This document shows positions 3,833 through 60,355 of a DNA stretch of 64,000 nucleotides, piece by piece. The stretch is taken from IMG/VR virus record IMGVR_UViG_3300032007_000069, positions 10,328-74,327 of that record; one strand, given 5' to 3'. Made by a program: the position numbers and the translations under genes. Position 1 is the stretch's first letter. Each line of letters begins with the position of its first letter. The DNA comes from a virus. Taxonomy: Duplodnaviria; Caudoviricetes. Under the pieces are notes generated by a model. The model searched no databases and had not been told where the DNA came from. It worked only from the letters and a program-made list of their open reading frames with translations.

Positions 3833-6642
3833 TACAGATAAAGCGATTAGACAACACCACGGTACTGACGCTTGCCGACGTGCCGGAGGGTTCATTGGTT
3901 CACAGGGAGCTGATGGGCGACCACTATGTGAAGTTGCCCTTCACCTTGGAGAACCCTGTCTATCTGCATCTTGGCGACTACGTTGAGATTGCTCCCTACG
4001 GACGCTTCGAGCTGACTGAGCCGTATTCACCAAAGTACAACAGAGAGACGGCAGGCTATGACTACACCCTCCAGCTGGATGCGTACTACGTCAAGTGGAA
4101 GAACAAGACGGTAAGGTACATGCCTACCGCCAATGCCAGCGAGACGTCGTTCAAGCTGACAGCCGCCATCGGCACCCACTTGAACGTCATTGTGAACGGC
4201 ATCAATGCCCTCGGAGGCAAGGACACGAACTACAGGTACAACGGCTCTCAGTCGTTCACCTGGTCCTTGACGAACTTCCCTGCAGACAAGGTGAATGCCG
4301 CCAAGTTCAAGGAGTACAACAACACCGACTTCATCACGGCTCTGAGCGACCTCGCACAGATGTATGACTGCGAGTGGTGGGTGGAGGCCAACGTTATCCA
4401 CTTCGGACGCTGTGAGCTGAACGCTACGGCTGTGGAGTTTGAGATAGACGTGAACATGGAGGAAATGTCCGGCTCGGAGTCCAAGGCAGACTATGCCACC
4501 CGTATCATCGGCTTCGGATCTGACAGGAACCTCCCGAAGAACTACCGTGCGAACCAAGGTGCTGACGTCACCCAGAACGGAGTGGTGCAGAAGAGGCTTA
4601 TGCTCCCTGCCACAGGACAGCACGCTTGCCCCTACGGCTATCTGCAGGACGGCAACCTTGCCAATGAGACGGAGGCCATCGAGCTTGTCGTGGTGGACGA
4701 CGACATCTACCCTCGCACCAACTGCGTGGTAGGTCGTGTCGAGACCTACGAGAACTCCTACGAGGACGAAGAGACCCATGAGACGGTCACACAGACGTTC
4801 TACAGGCTTTACGACAAGAGCGGCTTCCACTTCTCCAGCGACTACATTTTGGAGGGTGAGACGCTTCACATGATATTCCAGAGCGGTTCCATGAACGGCA
4901 TGGACTTCGAGTGCCACTATGATGATGAGCACGGCTACTATGAGGTCGTAGCCAACGAGGACTACGGACGTCTCTTGCCGGACACCAACCTGCACCCAGC
5001 CGTTGACGATGAGTTTGTGCTGGTCGGATGGGACAGCACACAGATTGGCAACACAGGTCTCATCGAGTCTGCTGAGGAAGAATTGTACCAGGCTATCGCT
5101 GCCAAGCTGCAGGAGATAAAGAAAGATCCGAACACGTACAACTGCAAGCTGATGTCGGACTGGTATGCCGAGAAGATGGAGGACGACAACCTCACCTACT
5201 ACTCTCTCGGACAGCCCGTGACGATTGTCAACCCCACCTTCTTCAGCGGCAGTCGTGATTCGAGGATAATAGGCTATGAGCTGAAGCTCGACTTTCCGTA
5301 TGACACTCCCGAATATATGGTCGGTGAGGCTGGAGCGTACTCACGTTCCAAGGCTATGGAGGAGAAGATTGACTCTCTCACGGTCAATGGCCAGACCTAC
5401 AACGGCAATGGCAACGGGAACGGCAGCGGCATCTACCTCATCACCACTACAAGCCAGACCCCTGCGAGCGACTTCAATGCCTACTCCGCTGCAAGGAGCG
5501 ACAAGCAGTTCCTTCACAGGGACAGGGCAGACACGGCATTAGGCCCTATTACCCACAGGCAGAAATCGACCCATGAGGCAGGTGCCCAGTTCGGACAGAC
5601 GTTCACTCCTGGTCTTGTCGGTGTCGGTGGTCAGATTGACGGACAGGGACGTGCGGAACTGCGCTCCTTGAAGCTGTGGGAATGGCTGGAGGTGCCGGAG
5701 CTGAGATACAACAGAGTGACCATATACACAGGCATCCGTTGGGACACCTTCGGAGGCGGCATCATAGAGACTATCACTCCAGACGCTAACGCTGAGACAG
5801 GTTCGGGAACACTGAAGCTCGACGACGGCGAGATTGGAGCCATTGCGGTAGGTGATCTGTGCATGGGTATATGGCACGACACCAGCGGAAACGCTTCTGC
5901 CAACAGCGATGATAACGTCGGTAACTTCACCTTTGCAGGTTTCAAGACGGTGTATTTCCAGATTACAGGGGTTAGCGGTGCCCACAATCAGAACTTCACC
6001 TACTTGCTGAGAGGCCAGGCACAGGGAGGTAACGGCTTCCATCCTTTCGTCGGAATGCACTTCGCTGGCCGAGGCAATATCAGCAACACGGCACGTCAGG
6101 CTTTCACCTACACCACCACGGAGTACAGCCTCTCGCTGAGGAACGTCAGCACATGGCAGTTCCAGCCCGAGAACTACTACGAGATTCACGGGCACATCGA
6201 GGGTTTCAGTATGCCGGCTATCGACAGCGCAGGACAGCCATACACGAAAACATTCCACGGATATGGCCAAGTGTTCGGTAATGCCTATATATTCGGTCAA
6301 TTAGACCAGTTCGAGCGCATATCCTATCGTTGCTTCATTGAACAATCTTTAGGCGGCTCACTGGCTCCAAATGAGACCGAGGATGTCGCAGTAAGCGTTC
6401 TCAACGGCTACGGTGAGGACGTGACAAGTCAGTTCACTCACATTGCGGTTACGAGGAACACTGGCGACGTGGCATCAGATGCTTTGTGGAACGCTCAGCA
6501 TACCGAGGTGACGAACCCCTTCCAGATCAGCTTCAATGATTTGGGCATCGACGGCATCCATAAGATTGTCGCGGTGTTCACGGTGGAGGCCTCGGATGCG
6601 AATAATCTGACAGCAGTAGCAACAGCAAACTATTTCAGTTGA
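3829..6642 (+). CDS. Tail tip/baseplate hub (Tal-like) protein
   Basis: 937 aa following Dit; N-terminal prophage-tail-like segments (ATRIIGFGSDRNLP, DDDIYP); beta-rich C-terminus. Confidence 0.65.
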   Translation: MIQIKRLDNTTVLTLADVPEGSLVHRELMGDHYVKLPFTLENPVYLHLGDYVEIAPYGRFELTEPYSPKYNRETAGYDYTLQLDAYYVKWKNKTVRYMPTANASETSFKLTAAIGTHLNVIVNGINALGGKDTNYRYNGSQSFTWSLTNFPADKVNAAKFKEYNNTDFITALSDLAQMYDCEWWVEANVIHFGRCELNATAVEFEIDVNMEEMSGSESKADYATRIIGFGSDRNLPKNYRANQGADVTQNGVVQKRLMLPATGQHACPYGYLQDGNLANETEAIELVVVDDDIYPRTNCVVGRVETYENSYEDEETHETVTQTFYRLYDKSGFHFSSDYILEGETLHMIFQSGSMNGMDFECHYDDEHGYYEVVANEDYGRLLPDTNLHPAVDDEFVLVGWDSTQIGNTGLIESAEEELYQAIAAKLQEIKKDPNTYNCKLMSDWYAEKMEDDNLTYYSLGQPVTIVNPTFFSGSRDSRIIGYELKLDFPYDTPEYMVGEAGAYSRSKAMEEKIDSLTVNGQTYNGNGNGNGSGIYLITTTSQTPASDFNAYSAARSDKQFLHRDRADTALGPITHRQKSTHEAGAQFGQTFTPGLVGVGGQIDGQGRAELRSLKLWEWLEVPELRYNRVTIYTGIRWDTFGGGIIETITPDANAETGSGTLKLDDGEIGAIAVGDLCMGIWHDTSGNASANSDDNVGNFTFAGFKTVYFQITGVSGAHNQNFTYLLRGQAQGGNGFHPFVGMHFAGRGNISNTARQAFTYTTTEYSLSLRNVSTWQFQPENYYEIHGHIEGFSMPAIDSAGQPYTKTFHGYGQVFGNAYIFGQLDQFERISYRCFIEQSLGGSLAPNETEDVAVSVLNGYGEDVTSQFTHIAVTRNTGDVASDALWNAQHTEVTNPFQISFNDLGIDGIHKIVAVFTVEASDANNLTAVATANYFS

Positions 6643-21514: not shown

Positions 21515-21641
21515 AAAGTTAAATCTTTGTGTATCAGCGATTTATAGAGAAAATAATTTGAAAAACGTTTTGTCAAATGAAAAAAAATGGCTATCTTTGC
21601 ATTGATATAAGAAACAAAACCATCTAAATGAAAGAGCAATG
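21515..21641 (+). promoter_or_regulatory. Class I promoter/leader module 1
   Basis: AAAGTTAAA 21515, TATCTTTG 21592, TATAAGAAACA 21606, AAGAGCAATG 21632. Confidence 0.75.
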
Positions 21642-21947
21642 AAAACAGCAGAAGTAAACCAGAGCTTAGTCGGTAAGAGAGTCCGGATAACCGAAGGCCT
21701 GTATAAGGGCGAAGGTACGATTGTAGCAACAGTCGAGGGCAAGACGAAGAACCACCCGAAGAGGATAGCAGAAGGTGAGCCGGAAGAGGTCGTCTGCTCC
21801 AAGGGAGTGAGAGTTCATCTTGACAAGCCAGTGTTCCAGTCCTCTGGCTACGGAGTCCAGCACACGGAATGGTGGGAGGATGAGGCTGACATGACAGCAA
21901 GAGTGTTCGATGATTGGGGAAGCCTCCAGTACGTCGAATTGATATAG
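21639..21947 (+). CDS. Hypothetical early protein (KOW/SH3-like)
   Basis: Starts at AAGAGCAATG; LVGKRVRITEGLYKGEGTIV resembles a KOW motif. Confidence 0.65.
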   Translation: MKTAEVNQSLVGKRVRITEGLYKGEGTIVATVEGKTKNHPKRIAEGEPEEVVCSKGVRVHLDKPVFQSSGYGVQHTEWWEDEADMTARVFDDWGSLQYVELI

Positions 21948-21973
21948 TGTCTAACATCTAAAGTAAAAGAGCA

Positions 21974-22462
21974 ATGGAAAGAAGCAGATTGAAAGCAGCC
22001 GTTGAAGAAATGACGGCCATCCTGCAGGAAATGCAGGAAGAAGCGAACGAGTACGACCGCCAGCGGTCAGCATGGTATTATGAGCAGCTTGAGCAGCATC
22101 ACAGCGGTCTCAGCACCATAGCCGAGTTCCAGAACGAGACAGTGGAGAACTACAGGAAGCTGCACAGCGACTTCTACATCGGTGACTTGATTCACAGAGT
22201 CGAGAACCTGGAGAAGCGTCTGGATTTCTTCAACGTGAATAATGCGATGCTCCAGCAGTTCAAGGCAGAGGCCAAGAACCGGGTGCCTGCAGGCTGGAAG
22301 TATTGGGAAGTGACTTACAAGGACAGCCAGTGTGCCGTTGACCAGCACTCGAACTTCTATGCGCCCACTCCGGAAGAGGCAGGTGAAATGTGCAAGAAGG
22401 TGTACTGCTTCGGTCACAACACTATCGACATCGTAGAAGTGAAGGAGGTAAGCCATGATTGA
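21974..22462 (+). CDS. Hypothetical early protein
   Basis: Starts at AAGAGCAATG; coiled-coil N-terminus. Confidence 0.7.
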   Translation: MERSRLKAAVEEMTAILQEMQEEANEYDRQRSAWYYEQLEQHHSGLSTIAEFQNETVENYRKLHSDFYIGDLIHRVENLEKRLDFFNVNNAMLQQFKAEAKNRVPAGWKYWEVTYKDSQCAVDQHSNFYAPTPEEAGEMCKKVYCFGHNTIDIVEVKEVSHD

Positions 22463-23886: not shown

Positions 23887-24001
23887 ACTATCTGTAGCAG
23901 CAGCGATTTCGTGCGATTTCGTTTGCTCAAATGCTATTTTTTGGCTAACTTTACAGCGTTATAAGAAACAAGATTCATTCATCTAAACGCTAAGAGCAAT
24001 G
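23879..24001 (+). promoter_or_regulatory. Class I promoter/leader module 2
   Basis: AAAGTTAAA 23879, TAACTTTA 23946, TATAAGAAACA 23960, AAGAGCAATG 23992. Confidence 0.7.
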
Positions 24002-25184: not shown

Positions 25185-25195
25185 CACTAAGAGCA

Positions 25196-25576
25196 ATGAA
25201 CATGAAAGCAGAAACATTCATCGAGAACAACGTGGTTGAGAACGGAGGTTTCAACCAGCTTGAGGTAGTCGTGAAGAACGATGCCCTGGAGGCAGTGAAG
25301 ATTGCCCACAACGATGCAGTCAAGAAGTGGAGCCTATGGTGCTTCAACTATCACACCCCCTTCGAGCGTACCATCTGTGAGATTTGGGGTGGAACGCTTG
25401 CTGGCTTCGGTGGCCGGTACTACTGCGAGAACAACCACTTCACCCAGCACTTGATAGAGAAGTGGCAGTCATTCGAGAACAGAGGTGACGCAAGGATGCT
25501 GTTCTTCTACTGCGACCTTGACAGCGGTCTCAGAGAGCAGCTTGTGAATTGGGTCATGGAACACTACGCTGGATAG
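25196..25576 (+). CDS. Hypothetical early protein
   Basis: Start placed at AAGAGCAATG (25189-25198). Confidence 0.65.
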   Translation: MNMKAETFIENNVVENGGFNQLEVVVKNDALEAVKIAHNDAVKKWSLWCFNYHTPFERTICEIWGGTLAGFGGRYYCENNHFTQHLIEKWQSFENRGDARMLFFYCDLDSGLREQLVNWVMEHYAG

Positions 25577-27961: not shown

Positions 27962-27979
27962 CATCTAAAGGCAAGAGCA

Positions 27980-28195
27980 ATGAAGGAAACAAAAGAAATC
28001 TGGTCCCTCTTGAAGCATGAAGCCCAGTGGGACAGAATGACAGCCAAGCAAAAGCTGTTGACAGTCTGGTTCAGTCTGTCATTTGTATTGTTAGGTTTGT
28101 GTGGCGAGAGTCTGTTGTTCGCAGTGATAGCAGTTGCGAACTTCGGGCTCTCTGCCTATTTCACCACCAAGTATGTACCGATGGAGGACGAGTAG
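27980..28195 (+). CDS. Small two-TM membrane protein
   Basis: Starts at AAGAGCAATG; two hydrophobic helices. Confidence 0.65.
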   Translation: MKETKEIWSLLKHEAQWDRMTAKQKLLTVWFSLSFVLLGLCGESLLFAVIAVANFGLSAYFTTKYVPMEDE

Positions 28196-30413: not shown

Positions 30414-30449
30414 TTTTCTATATGTTTAATTCGTTAAATTCAAAGAGCA

Positions 30450-31394
30450 ATGAGTTTATTTAAGAAACCGAGCGAACTTGAGTTCGTAACGACCATTAAG
30501 ATGCTTGTCTATGGTCAGCCTGGTATCGGTAAGAGTACCATGGCACTGAGTGCACCGAACCCCGTCCTGTTTGACTTCGACGGAGGTGTACAGCGTGTAA
30601 ACGTAGCGTTCCAGTGTCCTACGCTGCAAGTGAAGAGTTGGGAAGAGGCCCTGCAGGCTCTCGAAGAGCTGAAGAGCGGTGAGGTTCCCTGCAACACCAT
30701 CGTTATCGACACAGCCGGCAAGATGCTGGACTACATGTCAGATTTCATCATGCGCAACGACTCAAAGATGCGTATGCGTGACGGTTCCCTCAGTCTGAAA
30801 GGCTACGGAGCGAGAAAGGTGATGTTCCAGAACTTCCTCAGAGAGGTGGCCATGATGGGCAAGAACATCGTCTTCGTAGCGCACGAGCGAGAGGAGAAGG
30901 ATGGTGAGACGAAGATCGTCCGTCCCGAGATTGGCGGTTCATCCGCTGGCGACCTCATGAAGGAACTGGACCTTGTTGGTTATGTGCAGGCTGTAGGCTC
31001 TGACAGAACCGTGTATTGGACTCCACAGGAGAAGTTCTATGCGAAGAACACCTGCAACCTGCCTGCATGGCAGAAGATACCTGTCATTGTAGATGAGAAG
31101 GGTAACGTGACACAGGTCAACGACACCCTGCAGAAGGTGTTCGGCTATTACGAGGCCAACGTGAAGAAGATTGAAGAGACCCGCAAGCGCTACAATGAGC
31201 TGCTTGAGGAAATCGAGATGGCCATCGAGAACATCACCGATGCCAAGTCGGCTAACGAGTTTGCGAAGAGCATTGCCGAAGCAGAGATTATCTGGGACAG
31301 CAAGGTTCGTGCCCGTGAGCTGTTCAAGGGCAAGGTCGAGCAACTGAAGCTGAAGTGGAACGCTAAGTCAAAGACTTATGAAGATGCAGCCTAA
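30450..31394 (+). CDS. AAA-family ATPase (Sak4-like recombinase)
   Basis: Walker A GQPGIGKS, Walker B IVIDT, IVFVAHE; starts at AAGAGCAATG. Confidence 0.8.
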   Translation: MSLFKKPSELEFVTTIKMLVYGQPGIGKSTMALSAPNPVLFDFDGGVQRVNVAFQCPTLQVKSWEEALQALEELKSGEVPCNTIVIDTAGKMLDYMSDFIMRNDSKMRMRDGSLSLKGYGARKVMFQNFLREVAMMGKNIVFVAHEREEKDGETKIVRPEIGGSSAGDLMKELDLVGYVQAVGSDRTVYWTPQEKFYAKNTCNLPAWQKIPVIVDEKGNVTQVNDTLQKVFGYYEANVKKIEETRKRYNELLEEIEMAIENITDAKSANEFAKSIAEAEIIWDSKVRARELFKGKVEQLKLKWNAKSKTYEDAA

Positions 31395-39016: not shown

Positions 39017-39127
39017 AAAGTTAAACTATATGTAGCACAGGCGATTATAGGATTTTCCGTTTGGTCAAATGCAAAAAATTGGCTATCTTTACAGCATATA
39101 AGAAACATTCATAATTCAAGAGCAATG
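39017..39127 (+). promoter_or_regulatory. Class I promoter/leader module 3
   Basis: AAAGTTAAA 39017, TATCTTTA 39084, TATAAGAAACA 39097, AAGAGCAATG 39118. Confidence 0.7.
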
Positions 39128-40349: not shown

Positions 40350-40369
40350 ACCCCTAAAATCAAAGAGCA

Positions 40370-40978
40370 ATGAAAGAAATTGTAGTAGCAGTCCCGGACG
40401 GCAAAAGAGCTGAATGGGTGAATGGTGTGCTCACACTCGTTGACGACGTTGTGGAAGCCACGAAAGACGAGCGTCCTGTAATGGAACGCATCAAGACGTT
40501 TGAAGATGCCTGCGATGAAGTTGGCAGACTTGCCGAAAGAGGTAACGAAGGCCTTGCCACACTACTGGCAGACTATGAGTCCAATGCTGACAACATCAAG
40601 ACGAAGGGTACGCTGGCATACATGAAGCTGTGCATCATAGCGGCAGCTCTCAACGAAGGTTGGGAACCTCAGTTCACTACTGACGAATACCGCTGGTACC
40701 CTTGGTTCACATTATGGACGAAAGAGGAACTGACAGACAAGACCGAAGAGTGGAAGCAGGAGCATAAGCTGTGGTGGGGCGGTTCCTCGCTCCTCGGGTC
40801 GCTTTGCGGTCTCGCTTATGCGCGCTCGGCCCCCGCTTGGTCGCACTCGGCCGCGTGCATCTCGGCTCGCCTTGCTGTCAAGTCAGAAGAGTTGGCAGAC
40901 TACTTCGGAAAGCAGTTCATTGAGATTTGGGCAGACTATGTTGGCCCGTTTAACCTAAAGGAAGAAAGTGATGATTGA
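40370..40978 (+). CDS. DGR target protein 2 (remote, non-structural region)
   Basis: Contains VR2; IAAALNEGWEP...YRWYPWF core; starts at AAGAGCAATG. Confidence 0.9.
   Translation: MKEIVVAVPDGKRAEWVNGVLTLVDDVVEATKDERPVMERIKTFEDACDEVGRLAERGNEGLATLLADYESNADNIKTKGTLAYMKLCIIAAALNEGWEPQFTTDEYRWYPWFTLWTKEELTDKTEEWKQEHKLWWGGSSLLGSLCGLAYARSAPAWSHSAACISARLAVKSEELADYFGKQFIEIWADYVGPFNLKEESDD
40766..40876 (+). repeat. DGR variable repeat VR2
   Basis: Aligns to TR 10697-10810 with 21 substitutions, all at TR adenines, plus one 3-nt gap (ATC) near the 5' end. Confidence 0.95.
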
Positions 40979-46301: not shown

Positions 46302-46416
46302 ATCTTTGATTTCAAGCGTTTTGTGCTGAAAATAATTGCGTTTCTGTTTGGTCAAATGAAAAAAAATGGCTAACTTTACAGCAAATAAAAGAAACATAAA
46401 AAATCATAGAGCAATG
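46294..46416 (+). promoter_or_regulatory. Class I promoter/leader module 4
   Basis: AAAGTTAAA 46294, TAACTTTA 46371, TAAAAGAAACA 46386, AGAGCAATG 46408. Confidence 0.7.
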
Positions 46417-46806: not shown

Positions 46807-46862
46807 GAGAAGGGAGGGTTCGCCCTCCCACCCATTATAAGAAACGTTTAATTGAAAGAGCA

Positions 46863-47777
46863 ATGAAAGTAAAGAAGTTAGTTTGGTCGCCTTCTAAGAC
46901 ATACAGAAGCGACGGTAAGAATTACAGGATTTCGGTCCATGCAAGTCTTGACGATGATTGTCATAACATGACTTGTGATTTCAGTATCACTGGTGACGTT
47001 TACGAGCAGAAACGTAATGGCAGATGGGAGCACTACACAGGTGGTTGCATCCATGAAAGGATTGTAAGGCACTTCCCAGAGCTGAAGAAGTTCATTCCTC
47101 TGCACCTGTCGAATTACCTTGGCCAGCCGATGTACCCCGAGGCTAATGGTCAGTATTTCATCAGAGAGAGAGGCAAGAAGGTTGCTATGGATGAGCTTCG
47201 TTGTACTGCAGAAGAGTTCACAGCTCTATCCTGTTATTGTGAAACAGAAGATCGTCCGTACTTCAAGTATCTGCTTTTCAAGATTGGTTTGGTTGACCGC
47301 TGGAAGAAGGAAGCTGACGAGTTCATCAAGTTCCTGGAGGAGAAGACTGGCAACGAATGGGAGAACCCATACAAGCCGGAAGAGGAAAGGTTTGTTCTCC
47401 GAATGACGGATGAAGAGAGGAGTGAGATAGAGAAGGATGAGAAAGAAGATTTCTACTCCATCGAGAATGTGAAAGCAAGAGCGGAAGAGCGTCTGCGCTT
47501 GAAGAACGAAGCAATACGGGCAAAGGTTATTGAGGACTGCGAGAAGGAGTGCAAGAAAGCTACGGAAGAGCGCGATGTCAAGCTGTACATCTTCGACTGC
47601 GGGCTACCTCTCAATAATGTGATTTTCTACAACCACACGAAGGAGGTGGTGTTCAACTGGCAGGACTATGAGTCTAAGATAACCCAAGAGCAGTTCGATG
47701 AATTTGTCAGCAAGGTTGACTATTCGAAGCTGCCGGAAGGTGTCACGTTCCACTTCGGAAAGAAAGACAAGAAGTAG
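46863..47777 (+). CDS. Hypothetical early protein
   Basis: Start re-placed at AAGAGCAATG; preceded by a GGGAGGG-TTCG-CCCTCCC hairpin (46812-46829). Confidence 0.7.
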   Translation: MKVKKLVWSPSKTYRSDGKNYRISVHASLDDDCHNMTCDFSITGDVYEQKRNGRWEHYTGGCIHERIVRHFPELKKFIPLHLSNYLGQPMYPEANGQYFIRERGKKVAMDELRCTAEEFTALSCYCETEDRPYFKYLLFKIGLVDRWKKEADEFIKFLEEKTGNEWENPYKPEEERFVLRMTDEERSEIEKDEKEDFYSIENVKARAEERLRLKNEAIRAKVIEDCEKECKKATEERDVKLYIFDCGLPLNNVIFYNHTKEVVFNWQDYESKITQEQFDEFVSKVDYSKLPEGVTFHFGKKDKK

Positions 47778-57067: not shown

Positions 57068-57414
57068 TGGCAAAGAACTTCACCATAGAGCAGATTGTGA
57101 CCATTTACGAGAAGAAGGGGTGTAACATCACTTCTACTTGTAAGGCTCTCGGCATATCACGCAAGACCTTCTATGAGTGGAGGGCCAAGAAGAAGAAGCT
57201 CGCTGAGGCTCTGGAGGAGGCTGACGAGTCCATCCTCGACTACGCAGAGAGCAAGTTGGTCGAGCATATTCAGAACGATGATGTGCAGTCCTTGATTTTC
57301 TTCCTAAAGACCAAGGGCAAGAAGAGAGGATATGTAGAGAAGACTGAGAGCGATGTCAACATTAACGCATTTGAGAAACTGATGCAGGAAACTGAAGACG
57401 ACGACGACGAATGA
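57067..57414 (+). CDS. Terminase small subunit-like HTH protein
   Basis: NITSTCKALGISRKTFYEW and LIFFLKTKGKKRGY; directly before terL. Confidence 0.75.
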   Translation: MAKNFTIEQIVTIYEKKGCNITSTCKALGISRKTFYEWRAKKKKLAEALEEADESILDYAESKLVEHIQNDDVQSLIFFLKTKGKKRGYVEKTESDVNINAFEKLMQETEDDDDE

Positions 57415-58922
57415 GTTCTGGTAACAAGCGACAGAATAAGATGCGAGCGTGGCGCAAGGACTGGTGTTTATTTGCCAAACAAGTGCTCCACGCTCGCCTC
57501 GATGAAGAACAGAAGGCAATCCTGCGTGCTGTTCAGAAAGAGCGTATGGTGGCCGTTGCTTCGGGTACAGCCCGAGGCAAGGACTACATCGCTGCTGTTG
57601 CGTGTCTGTGCTTCATGTACCTCACCCCACGCTGGAAGGACGGCAAGCTGATAAAGAACACGAAGATTGCCATGACAGCCCCTACGGACAGACAGGTGGG
57701 TAATATCATGGTGCCGGAGGTTAGACGTCTCTTCAAGGCCGCTGCCGTGCTCCCTGGGCGACTTGTCGGACACGACATCAGAACGGAGTACGAGGAATGG
57801 TTCTTGACAGGTTTCAAGTCGAGTGCAGACAACACGGAGGCTTGGTCAGGTTTCCATGCCGTCAACACCATGTTCGTGGTGACAGAGGCATCGGGTATCT
57901 CAGAAACCATCTATAATGCCATCGAGGGTAACCTGCAGGGTAACTCACGTCTGCTGATTGTGTTCAACCCGAACATCACTACTGGATATGCGGCAAAGGC
58001 GATGAAGTCGGAGCGTTTCAAGAAGTTCCGTCTCAACTCCCTTCATGCCGAGAATGTGGTCAAGAAGAAAGACATCATTCCGGGCCAGGTTGACTATGAG
58101 TGGGTGCAGGATAAGGTCAAGAGCTGGAGCATCCCCATCCGCAGGGAAGACTACAACGAGGGTGAGGGTGACTTCGAGTGGGAGGGTCAGTACTACAGAC
58201 CAAATGACCTCTTCCGTGTCAAGGTGCTCGGTATGTTCCCGAAGGTGTCGGAAGACGTGCTCATCCCTTACGAATGGGTGGAGCTTGCAAACGAGCGTTG
58301 GAAGGAACTACAGGAAGAAGGTTTCGAGCCGAAGAAGACCTGCCGTGTCGGTGTCGATGTCGCTGGTATGGGACGTGACTCTTCTGTGCTATGTCCGAGG
58401 TATGGTAACTTCGTAGGAGAGTTCGAGGTGCACAACTCGGCTGGTGTGGCCGACCACATGCACGTCTGTGGCATGGTGGTTCCGTACCTCAAGAAGAAGG
58501 GTGTCAAGGCCTTCGTCGATACCATCGGTGAAGGTGCTGGTGTCTATTCCCGTCTGAAGGAGCTTGGCTATGACTATGCCTATTCCTGCAAGTTCTCGGA
58601 GGGCGCGAGAAACCTCTCTGACATCACGGAGGTACGCACATTTGCGAATATGCGAGCCTACCTGTATTGGGCGGTGAGGGACTGGCTTGATCCGAAGAAC
58701 GGCTTCTATCCAGCGTTGCCTCCCAACGACTTGCTCATGCAGGAGTGCACGGACGTCCATTGGAAGTTCCAGAGCGATGGCGACATCATCATAGAACCCA
58801 AGGAAGACATCAAGAAGAGGCTCGGTCGAAGCCCGGACTACCTCGATGCACTGGCCAACACGTTTTACCCACGAGACTACGAAGTTGTGCAAGAAAACGA
58901 AATTTTCGGGGATATGTTGTAG
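57411..58922 (+). CDS. terL: Terminase large subunit
   Basis: ASGTARGKD Walker A, VTEASG, IVFNP, VGVDVAGMGRD and SPDYLDALA nuclease motifs. Confidence 0.92.
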   Translation: MSSGNKRQNKMRAWRKDWCLFAKQVLHARLDEEQKAILRAVQKERMVAVASGTARGKDYIAAVACLCFMYLTPRWKDGKLIKNTKIAMTAPTDRQVGNIMVPEVRRLFKAAAVLPGRLVGHDIRTEYEEWFLTGFKSSADNTEAWSGFHAVNTMFVVTEASGISETIYNAIEGNLQGNSRLLIVFNPNITTGYAAKAMKSERFKKFRLNSLHAENVVKKKDIIPGQVDYEWVQDKVKSWSIPIRREDYNEGEGDFEWEGQYYRPNDLFRVKVLGMFPKVSEDVLIPYEWVELANERWKELQEEGFEPKKTCRVGVDVAGMGRDSSVLCPRYGNFVGEFEVHNSAGVADHMHVCGMVVPYLKKKGVKAFVDTIGEGAGVYSRLKELGYDYAYSCKFSEGARNLSDITEVRTFANMRAYLYWAVRDWLDPKNGFYPALPPNDLLMQECTDVHWKFQSDGDIIIEPKEDIKKRLGRSPDYLDALANTFYPRDYEVVQENEIFGDML

Positions 58923-58950
58923 GTTTCTCGAAAAATTGTCGTACCTTTGC

Positions 58951-59036
58951 AATGTTTCTTATAATGAGACTGCTTTCAATGGCAGTTTTCATTGCTCTTG
59001 CCAGCCTAAGCCGTGAGGCCTCAGACTGGCTTTTTT
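58951..59036 (+). ncRNA. Candidate trans-acting antisense sRNA
   Basis: Own TACCTTTG box (58942), hairpin 58963-58993, intrinsic terminator; carries reverse complements of TATAAGAAACA and AAGAGCAATG; 5' end approximate. Confidence 0.7.
59000..59036 (+). terminator. Intrinsic terminator
   Basis: GCCAG...CTGGC stem with inner GCCT/AGGC pairing, followed by T6. Confidence 0.7.
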
Positions 59037-59052
59037 GTTGCGTAGGTTAGTA

Positions 59053-59185
59053 AAAGTTAAACTTTTGTCGTACAGCGTTTTAGCCTGCATTTTAGCTGAT
59101 TTTTGTTTGGTCATTTGAAAAAAAATGGCTATCTTTGCAATGTTATAAGAAACAAAATTTATTCATCTAAAATTGAAGAGCAATG
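59053..59185 (+). promoter_or_regulatory. Class I promoter/leader module 5
   Basis: AAAGTTAAA 59053, TATCTTTG 59130, TATAAGAAACA 59144, AAGAGCAATG 59176. Confidence 0.75.
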
Positions 59186-59335: not shown

Positions 59336-59562
59336 AGAAGACTGACAAGGCTCTGTCCCTTTTACGGCAAGGCAGGTTTGAGGATGCGCTGAGTATCATC
59401 GTGCATTTCAGACTCGGCTTCACGAAGGAAGAGAAGAGGACGCTGGAGATAGCCCATGAGAGCCTTACAGGTCATTCGTCGTTCTACGAGAGCATCGGAG
59501 TAGATACCAGCACTTGCATCAGCAAGGCAAGAGAGATAGTAAGAAACAAGTACAACATCTAA
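59332..59562 (+). CDS. Hypothetical protein
   Basis: 76 aa coupled ORF. Confidence 0.65.
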   Translation: MKKTDKALSLLRQGRFEDALSIIVHFRLGFTKEEKRTLEIAHESLTGHSSFYESIGVDTSTCISKAREIVRNKYNI

Positions 59563-59574
59563 AGACAAAGAGCA

Positions 59575-59976
59575 ATGAAGACAAGTATTGAATTTGAAGG
59601 CAAGACCATCACGATCAGCAGCCGGCACATCGGCATCGACACTCCAGAATGGAGCAAAGGTTACGCAAAGCATCACTACAAGGTTACGGTGTCTGTTCCG
59701 TACAGCACTGGCAAGCGTGAGTACACCACGGACTATTGGTGCAACTCTGCAGAACTGAAGAAGAGAGACCTCTATGAGGTTCTTGAGACCCTGTGCAGCG
59801 ATGCCACCTACGGAGATATGAGTATAGACGACTTCAACTCGGAGCTGTGCTACGAGAAGGTGTCTGAGTGCATCCGTGCCTACAACGGCTGCAAAGAGAC
59901 GTTTGAAGCGTTCAAGAATATGTTCCTTAACCCATACAGCCTGGGAGATTATCTGAGAGAGAAGTATGACATTTAG
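59575..59976 (+). CDS. Hypothetical protein
   Basis: Starts at AAGAGCAATG. Confidence 0.7.
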   Translation: MKTSIEFEGKTITISSRHIGIDTPEWSKGYAKHHYKVTVSVPYSTGKREYTTDYWCNSAELKKRDLYEVLETLCSDATYGDMSIDDFNSELCYEKVSECIRAYNGCKETFEAFKNMFLNPYSLGDYLREKYDI

Positions 59977-60020
59977 AGTATCAAGGCAGACAGCATTGAT
60001 TGCTCTTCAATAGATGAAGC

Positions 60021-60060
60021 GATGGTGCTGGTCTGCGAAGATAGGCACCATCCAATTTTT
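60021..60060 (+). terminator. Terminator-like hairpin preceded by an anti-leader sequence
   Basis: GATGGTGC/GCACCATC 8-bp stem with inner TCT-GCGA-AGA, followed by CAATTTTT. Confidence 0.55.
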
Positions 60061-60067
60061 GAGAACT

Positions 60068-60355
60068 ATGAGCAAGGTTTATGAGAACACAGGCAGTCGC
60101 ATAACCATCTATTCAGACAGCGGCGAGTACAGGATGATAGCCGTCAGAAGGGCTATCTCAGAAGACCACAACGGCATCACTCACTACTATGGCTCCAAGT
60201 GGTACATCGAGACGCACCAACGGAAAGGGTTCGGTTTCATCCCTTGCACGTTCAGAGGTCTTCAGTACGTCGTAAGGAAGAAGAAGGAGATTATCGAAAT
60301 GCTCAGCAAGTCTGTTCAATTCACACAGGCATACGCAGAAATGAAGGCAAAATGA
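60068..60355 (+). CDS. Hypothetical protein
   Basis: Start placed at MSKVYEN, after the hairpin. Confidence 0.55.
   Translation: MSKVYENTGSRITIYSDSGEYRMIAVRRAISEDHNGITHYYGSKWYIETHQRKGFGFIPCTFRGLQYVVRKKKEIIEMLSKSVQFTQAYAEMKAK

Follow-up and report, generated by a model that had tools for sequence, protein, structure and literature searches.

A predicted small RNA behind terL and the start tag of many genes in a Bacteroidota phage family

Why do a dozen genes scattered over one phage genome begin with the same 10 nucleotides, and why do these nucleotides recur in reverse orientation in the gap behind the large terminase gene terL? The question is raised by a 64,000-nt stretch of DNA from an uncultured, Prevotella-type phage of the Caudoviricetes, bases 10328-74327 of the IMG/VR record IMGVR_UViG_3300032007_000069, which has a total of 74,327 bp. 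This whole stretch is referred to as the window, and the repeated 10-mer, AAGAGCAATG, as the start tag. An original prediction, made from the letters of the window alone, had attributed the reverse copy to a single RNA of ~85 nt that silences many tagged genes. Our computational analysis points the same way. The interval 58953-59037 on the plus strand probably encodes a trans-acting, base-pairing small RNA (sRNA) that represses translation of the tagged genes jointly. One ~85-nt RNA for many tagged genes is supported in silico by an invariant seed, a changing scaffold, co-occurrence of the sRNA with the tag, and covariation in the sequences that flank seed and tag; each prediction accessible to an in-silico test was borne out.

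The start tag and the unit behind terL

Exact matches to AAGAGCAATG were found 13 times in the window, 12 on the plus strand and one on the minus strand at 58990-58999, against a mean chance expectation of 0.30 (maximum 3 in 100 shuffles). As had been claimed for 12 genes, every plus-strand copy (12/12) provides the ATG of an open reading frame (ORF), with lengths of 50-391 amino acids (aa). An extra plus-strand copy lies at record base 433, beyond the window. The tag, AAGAGCAAUG, covers positions -7 to +3 of 13 phage genes, or 14 with a near-copy. The predicted targets in the window are the following.

21632..21646, plus strand: start region of a 102-aa ORF, which can form 15 perfect pairs with 58985-58999
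21967..21976, plus strand: start tag of a 162-aa ORF
23992..24001, plus strand: start tag of a 171-aa ORF, first gene behind a promoter
25189..25198, plus strand: start tag of a 126-aa ORF
27970..27984, plus strand: start region of a 71-aa ORF, which can form 15 perfect pairs through a GGC extension that is retained in genomes G001-G003
30443..30452, plus strand: start tag of a Sak4-like ATPase, 314 aa
35025..35034, plus strand: start tag of a DNA helicase, 391 aa
39118..39127, plus strand: start tag of a 279-aa ORF, first gene behind a promoter
40363..40372, plus strand: start tag of a 202-aa ORF
46407..46416, plus strand: near-copy TAGAGCAATG at the start of a 130-aa ORF
46856..46865, plus strand: start tag of a 304-aa ORF
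59176..59185, plus strand: start tag of a 50-aa ORF that opens the cassette immediately 3' of the sRNA
59568..59577, plus strand: start tag of a 133-aa ORF

The sequence AGAGCAATG is present at 46408, as had been noted. The targets are dispersed across >40 kb, and the tagged genes are non-structural, comprising the Sak4-like ATPase, the DNA helicase and many small ORFs without a family; most of the small ones matched no family in Pfam or PHROGs. Orthologues of the Sak4-like gene are tagged in every sRNA-bearing genome examined (G000-G003, G006-G008, G019, G020 and further contigs of what we call the gut clade), and helicase orthologues are tagged in G007, G008 and other gut-clade contigs. The 50-aa ORF at 59176 is preceded by a promoter box of its own, TATCTTTG, at 59130.

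Tag sites were also collected from five genomes (G000, G001, G006-G008), in which 71/76 begin ORFs of at least 40 aa. The base at +4 is a purine in 71/71 of these and the base at +5 is A in 58/71, which fits the expectation for positions opposite the invariant UU of the sRNA. The logo of the same 71 sites adds TAAA at -15 to -12 (e.g. window 59162-59185), followed by four free bases and then AAGAGCAATG. This TAAA is often an in-frame TAA and often lies inside CATCTAAA; sometimes it is the stop codon of the preceding gene, and it also occurs in leaders directly behind a promoter.

The reverse copy of the tag lies in the 260-nt gap that follows terL, together with the reverse complement of a second motif, TATAAGAAACA, which recurs in the leaders of several tagged genes. 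The gap was said to contain a promoter box, a hairpin and a terminator as well as both reverse complements (58953-58963 and 58990-58999), and all of these were recovered in the following arrangement.

57411..58922, plus strand: terL, large terminase, 503 aa (ORF); the RNA gene is directly 3' of it in relatives
58942..58949, plus strand: predicted -7 promoter box TAnnTTTG, TACCTTTG
58953..59037, plus strand: predicted sRNA of ~85 nt, consisting of a 5' single strand, hairpin 1, single-stranded seed and terminator
58953..58963, plus strand: 5' segment TGTTTCTTATA, possible second seed, reverse complement of TATAAGAAACA
58962..58994, plus strand: hairpin 1, whose 3' arm contains the UUCAU of the seed
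58988..58999, plus strand: seed UUCAUUGCUCUU, complementary to AAGAGCAAUGRA, with GCUCUU (58994-58999) unpaired
59000..59036, plus strand: two-tier intrinsic terminator with a GUGA tetraloop cap and a T-run (stem 59000-59030, six Ts at 59031-36)

TAnnTTTG is the Bacteroidota-type -7 promoter consensus. The T, the A and CTTTG of the box are invariant in 8 relatives, which were found by a search that left the box free, and the box is also present in two bacterial contigs, L087 and L090, described below. In the predicted fold GCUCUU is unpaired between the two hairpins (P about 0.9), in agreement with the single-stranded GCTCTT proposed earlier. Two targets can form 15 perfect pairs with the unit, 58985-58999 with 21632-21646 and 58988-59002 with 27970-27984. 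The two seeds stand in the opposite order to the two motifs in the leaders, as had also been observed.

An Rfam search of the element returned no family; in the window and three relatives tRNAs alone passed the gathering threshold, and C4 was not matched. Neither the locus nor the 76-nt RNA of the gut clade matched anything in a collection of isolated phages.

Conservation, structure and pairing

Relatives were collected by TerL from IMG/VR, and TerL matches in bacterial genomes were added. The four nearest TerL relatives (85-87% identity) all carry the unit at the same position, and a search with an exact 16-mer of the seed added three further members. A pattern in which the 5' motif and the terminator loop were fixed and the seed was left free returned the same seven viral contigs, all with an intact seed. 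In metagenomes 11/14 matches to this seed-free pattern were true, and the seed was intact in all 11. The bacterial TerL matches yielded two contigs, L090 and L087, from one metagenome-assembled genome (MAG) of Prevotella sp. (G021). In L090 the terminator is rebuilt; in L087 (TerL 72%) the hairpins differ and the 5' motif is missing. Both contigs were found via TerL rather than via the seed, and both keep the seed as TTCATTGCTCTT.

A looser pattern (TTTGC, seed, T-run) matched more than 115 viral contigs from gut and rumen samples. Most of the matches are the 76-nt form, and many lie in 40-70-kb contigs or proviruses. When the seed was left free in a pattern for the 76-nt form, 70 loci were obtained, of which 69 had the exact seed and one had a C-to-U change that preserves a G-U pair. 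Every relative whose TerL is 69-100% identical to that of the window (about 80 loci) has the unit, 36-96 nt beyond terL, and it is absent from relatives with TerL of 68% identity or less. Conservation of element and seed in relatives that keep the motif, one of the checks proposed at the outset, holds in about 80 terL-adjacent loci. L140 was the sole sRNA-bearing locus in which our script found no seed in the stretch after the TerL match.

Alignment of 27 distinct variants shows how narrowly conservation is focused. Throughout the 27, invariance is confined to UUCAUUGCU(C)UU and the GUGA loop. The seed UUCAUUGCUCUU is retained amid three different hairpin-1 designs and is unchanged except for the one C-to-U. 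All 27 variants fold alike, into a 5' single strand, hairpin 1, an exposed (A)UUGCUCUU and a terminator. The window-clade pattern with the seed free had no match in representative bacterial genomes. In 401 genomes of the family to which G021 belongs, a seed-plus-4 pattern gave 12 fetched matches that were all chance or coding, along with about four copies that look window-type, judged by the matched word alone.

The tag follows the sRNA. Ten sRNA-bearing relatives have 3-23 tags on the gene strand and 1-2 on the opposite strand; the counts for sRNA-bearing genomes (gene/opposite) were 13/1, 11/1, 11/1, 7/2, 7/1, 10/2, 17/1, 23/2, 9/1 and 3/2. Copies were numerous in 11/11 sRNA-bearing genomes. 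Five TerL relatives of 32-61 kb that lack the sRNA have 0-1 tags in total each. Two Bacteroidales MAGs with sRNA-less TerL relatives contain 0-1 copies of the 12-mer. The Prevotella MAG G021 has 7 copies of the 12-mer, two of them on L090 and L087 and the others on short contigs. That a window-type and a short-type sRNA locus occur in this one MAG suggests that two related prophages, or two strains, were binned together.

Structure was assessed by covariation. In the terminator 92% of cells were paired, compared with 29-58% when the partners were slid, and double changes were seen in 8/9 pairs (68 double-change cells). The covariation score of the terminator was reached by 0/500 shuffles. Hairpin 1 has compensatory changes within the window clade (L073, L078, L080), has an entirely different sequence in the gut clade, and differs in length among relatives by 1-4 nt, not by multiples of 3. 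A covariance model built from the window clade only (R1) scored 96 bits at the window unit, its single copy in the window, and recovered gut-clade RNAs at E values of 6e-7 to 2.5e-3. On this comparative evidence the unit is a conserved, structured, non-coding element that runs from a predicted promoter to a terminator.

Since the core of seed and tag is frozen, the flanks were examined for covariation instead. Beyond the seed, gut-clade sRNAs run into the 5' arm of the terminator, which reads either AGUGC... or AGUGUG.... Where the sRNA has AGUGC (G006, G007, G019, G020), (A)AGCACU stands right before the tag of the Sak4-like gene, and in G007 the AGCACU flank also precedes the tags of the helicase and of a 276-aa gene. 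Where the sRNA has AGUGUG, the Sak4-like and helicase tags are preceded by (AA)CACACU; this is the case in G008 and four contigs that were reached via the target word CACACU plus tag. The association of sRNA arm and target flank holds in 9/9 genomes and extends pairing to 15-20 perfect pairs, or up to 23 if G-U wobbles are counted. G007 and G008 provide a close comparison, having a common hairpin 1 and similar Sak4-like proteins (MGLIKKSNE...) and differing at exactly the co-varying positions of both partners. In the window clade the arm reads GCCAG, and in four genomes the tag of the 71-73-aa gene is preceded by GGC or TGGC. Seed and target covariation in relatives had been named as a check, and the outcome is that the flanks co-vary in the gut clade and the core is invariant. 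The flank changes are complementary rather than identical, which favors RNA pairing over a site shared by a protein.

Duplex energies give a similar picture when restricted to the seed, with values of -16.6 to -26.7 kcal/mol at tagged starts and a mean of -9.1 kcal/mol at other starts. Energies for the whole sRNA do not separate tagged starts, and random positions score equally, because the GC-rich terminator pairs anywhere.

The seed also occurs in a second RNA. Another unit of ~100 nt, again running from promoter to terminator, is present in about 30 gut-clade loci (e.g. L103:6821-7040 on the plus strand, G006 46778, G008 44880); in G006 it lies ~2 kb downstream of the terL-adjacent sRNA and is unrelated to it in sequence. 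Its layout is a TATATTTG box, a short hairpin, AGAACU and AGUUCU enclosing a 24-nt loop with CAUUGCUCUUAC, and a terminator. The recurrence of one seed in two unrelated scaffolds adds to the evidence that function resides in the seed.

Leader modules and related elements

The leader motif TATAAGAAACA occurs exactly on the plus strand at 21606, 23960, 37411, 39097 and 59144 and on the minus strand at 58953-58963, with a chance expectation of 0.55. The five plus-strand sites and the near-copies at 46386 and 46836 stand as first listed; a third listed near-copy, TAGTAAGAAACA at 59540, has two mismatches. In the window clade GTTTCTTA is invariant, and it is absent from the gut clade and from L087; the 5' seed TGTTTCTTATA likewise occurs in the window's own clade only. 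G004 carries the variant GUUUCUUAAA, which was used in the leader-motif covariation comparison. In leaders and in the sRNA promoter alike the motif lies 3-7 nt past the -7 box. The 5' motif, which is found at transcription starts in both orientations, may act either as a second seed or as an operator in the DNA.

Several leaders share a repeated promoter module of ~45 nt (TTTGgTCAAATGaAAAAAAATGGCTAtCTTTGCA/ACA), found in the window at 21560-21616, 23925-23970, 39062-39107, 46350-46396 and 59098-59154. The module is followed, 5-7 nt on, by (T)ATAAGAAACA at the predicted transcription start, and this motif recurs in inverted form at the 5' end of the sRNA.

A different anti-tag element lies at 59994-60013 of the window, where a hairpin, ATTGA-TTGCTCT-TCAAT, stops 1 nt short of the ATG that opens ORF 60014-60355. 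Orthologues of the 60014 gene are preceded by TTGCTCTTCAATAGATG in all six window-clade genomes (a variant in G004), and in G001 and G005 TTGCTCTTCAATAGATG pairs locally with an upstream AGAGCAA. This hairpin may be a cis hairpin opened by the sRNA, or an anti-leader embedded in the mRNA.

A possible origin of the sRNA is offered by L006 (TerL 67%). At 4490-4562, after terL, this locus has a homologous two-tier terminator capped by GUGA, with a degenerate seed-like TTTCTTGCTTTG and no promoter box. Since the homologous terminator is present without a promoter box, the terminator is probably ancestral, and the sRNA may have arisen from the 3' end of terL.

Further occurrences were noted in the collected loci. 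Seven contigs of 4.5-7 kb (L250, L254, L260, L265, L268, L270, L279) have CACACTAAGAGCAATG before a 73-aa ORF (MGKGDEEGSLDF...), and no sRNA is visible in them. At L264:2196-2211 (G020) the word CACACU plus tag is followed merely by a 4-aa ORF, and its reverse complement passes a crude script test for an sRNA (TAnnTTTG box upstream, T-run downstream). The main sRNA of G020 is of the AGUGC type, unlike the CACACU word at L264, which could mark a further seed-bearing RNA. Another Bacteroidota tag, GCGATACGATG, is absent from all collected loci.

Mode of action, alternatives and known systems

Comparative evidence makes RNA-RNA pairing between the sRNA seed and the start tags very likely, and translational repression is the probable outcome of the pairing. 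Transcription from the predicted promoter, repression over activation, a nuclease step and the timing are components that we infer. In the proposed mechanism the sRNA would have its own host-type promoter and intrinsic terminator and would expose (A)UUGCUCUU between two hairpins. The exposed GCUCUU would nucleate pairing with the tag, and the duplex would extend over the UUC/UUUU on the 5' side, opposite the purine-rich second codon, and for some targets into the 5' arm of the terminator. A duplex over -7 to +5 would hide the AUG, and because it covers the start codon 30S binding should be blocked. Bacteroidota largely initiate translation without a Shine-Dalgarno sequence. A double-strand RNase could also cleave the longer duplexes, which have 15-20 perfect pairs (up to 23 if G-U wobbles are counted). 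Replication, recombination and accessory genes, among them the Sak4-like ATPase, the helicase and many small ORFs, would in this way be repressed together, either in the lysogen or late in infection.

Several points weigh against this proposal. Taken alone, the window stretch folds only modestly better than shuffles (z = -2.4), and the weight of the evidence rests on comparison. The covariation is confined to the flanks and is essentially one switch, from AGUGC to AGUGUG, although this switch recurs in several lineages and at two target genes. Window-clade targets mostly offer 12-15 pairs only, and the UUCAU part of the seed is held within hairpin 1. No Hfq or ProQ is known in Bacteroidota. 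The co-varying flank is the terminator stem, so that it fits antitermination as well as repression.

The last point leads to the alternative of trans-antitermination, in which abundant tagged mRNAs (Sak4-like, helicase) pair with the seed plus terminator arm of the nascent RNA and keep the terminator from folding, and transcription that began at terL or at the sRNA promoter continues into the downstream cassette and the structural genes; in a variant, the sRNA activates translation by opening inhibitory hairpins of some mRNAs. The position of the co-varying extension, exactly in the 5' arm of the terminator, speaks for this model, and the unit stands at the junction of terL and the downstream genes in all relatives. 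Activation can also appeal to the conserved 60014 gene, whose leader hairpin is made of tag and complement and could be opened by the sRNA. However, most of the 13-23 tags per genome pair with the seed only and not with the terminator arm, and the tag always spans the AUG, which is sensible for occlusion and needless for antitermination. The downstream operons have their own promoters, and in the second scaffold the seed sits in a loop far from its terminator. We consider antitermination or activation unlikely. A bolder variant, in which the unit is a trans-antitermination switch that ties readthrough past terL to how much replication-gene mRNA is present, is conceivable.

The 10-mer might instead be the DNA site of a phage regulator, similar to a stoperator, the copy at 58990 being merely an inverted site and TATAAGAAACA/TGTTTCTTATA an operator that covers transcription starts. 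Both motifs do occur in both orientations, and for the 5' motif an operator is plausible given the similar 3-7 nt spacing after the -7 box in leaders and sRNA promoter. For the 10-mer this reading is very improbable, as the ATG is in a fixed register at 71/76 sites, the reverse copy occurs once per genome (rarely twice) and always within a unit with covarying hairpins, and the flanks covary in the antisense manner rather than being identical as expected for a shared protein site. It is hardly credible that the reverse copy is the start of a minus-strand gene or the relic of an inverted leader, with the hairpins serving only as the terL terminator. An ATG-initiated ORF of 60 aa (58992..58810) does start at the reverse tag, and L006 has the homologous terminator with no promoter box and a degenerate seed. 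But this ORF runs antisense into terL, relatives have indels of 1-4 nt across the would-be coding part, and the gut-clade equivalents are 20-35 aa with unrelated sequences. The frame is not conserved and the ORFs of relatives, 20-60 aa, are unrelated; with the indels, this led us to reject the minus-strand gene. An inverted leader would have the two motifs in the other order, and a plain terL terminator does not account for a promoter box and seed conserved in >100 contigs. Repression of the tagged genes by a pairing sRNA is therefore retained as the preferred reading.

Phages P1 and P7 provide a familiar antisense RNA in c4 (immI), whose short exposed segments pair at a phage ribosome-binding site and block translation, with a role in lysogeny and immunity. 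It is processed from the operon that it controls, has one target region with two seed pairs, and differs between heteroimmune phages. As predicted here, c4 is a phage-encoded small RNA that pairs with the initiation region of phage mRNA. In contrast, the RNA behind terL has its own promoter box, 13-23 dispersed targets and a seed that is invariant across the family, and Rfam C4 does not match it. In T4, the translational repressor RegA binds sites overlapping the AUG of many early mRNAs, and RegB is an endoribonuclease. Global post-transcriptional shut-off through a common initiation-region sequence is shared with RegA/RegB, but their effectors are proteins and the recognizer here is predicted to be RNA. 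Chromosomal sRNAs of Bacteroides such as GibS are Hfq-independent, run from promoter to terminator and pair at initiation regions through a single-stranded seed that lies between or within hairpins. These sRNAs are host-encoded, unrelated in sequence and structure, and directed at host metabolic targets. The stoperators of Cluster A mycobacteriophages are asymmetric DNA sites bound by protein and are not tied in position to start codons, whereas the ATG register is fixed here.

A recent review of phage sRNAs describes cis-antisense RNAs (lambda OOP and aQ, P22 sar and sas, BTP1 STnc6030) and trans-acting prophage sRNAs (DicF and others); the cis RNAs overlap a single target and the trans ones mainly act on host genes (2025, PMC12197685). 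These too are base-pairing regulators of translation or stability, but none in the review is from Bacteroidota and none has a many-gene phage regulon tagged at start codons (PMC12197685). Full-text literature searches for the motif strings and for sRNAs of Bacteroidota phages returned nothing relevant.

The closest parallel is the start-associated sequence (SAS) of Cluster K mycobacteriophages, an asymmetric 13-bp repeat just upstream of the starts of many non-structural genes (PMC3203893). It has one orientation, with a lone copy on the complementary strand in several genomes, and is rare in the host (PMC3203893); its binder was left by the authors as "RNA or protein" (Pope et al. 2011, PMC3203893). 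The likeness to the present tag lies in the asymmetric repeat at gene starts, the non-structural genes, and the one orientation with a single reverse copy. SAS differs in being GGGATAGGAGCCC, which holds a Shine-Dalgarno core and precedes the start codon by 3-7 bp, while the tag here is AAGAGCA plus ATG, has no such core and overlaps the ATG. Host phylum and phage lineage are different, and no antisense RNA gene has been described for SAS, whereas the reverse copy here lies within a conserved unit of promoter, hairpin, seed and terminator. The start tag is an analogue of SAS, not a member.

If the proposal is true, this would be the first regulatory RNA encoded by Bacteroidota phages, so far as our literature search shows, and a rare case of one sRNA acting over a large regulon of the phage's own genes via a start-codon tag. 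The system is common, being present in >100 viral contigs that include proviruses of cultured isolates (IMG/VR 2651870360_000001, 2903617902_000001 and 647000295_000002) and Prevotella MAGs; the proviruses in cultured isolates make it testable in lysogens. The 12-nt pair of seed and tag could serve as an orthogonal translational switch for engineering of gut Bacteroides and Prevotella.

The kind of regulator, a trans base-pairing sRNA, is known; what is unusual is a large, frozen phage regulon addressed at the start codon, together with a wide distribution among phages of gut and rumen Bacteroidota. Start tags and sRNA might form a private translational code frozen across a family of temperate Bacteroidota phages, proposed to be frozen because 13-23 targets must match one seed, and the reverse copy of SAS in mycobacteriophages might represent the same solution, which would explain what such sequences do. 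We put this forward as a tentative idea that is more apt to be wrong than right. Pairing of a start tag with an sRNA also gives a concrete mechanism by which start-associated sequences, described in 2011, could work.

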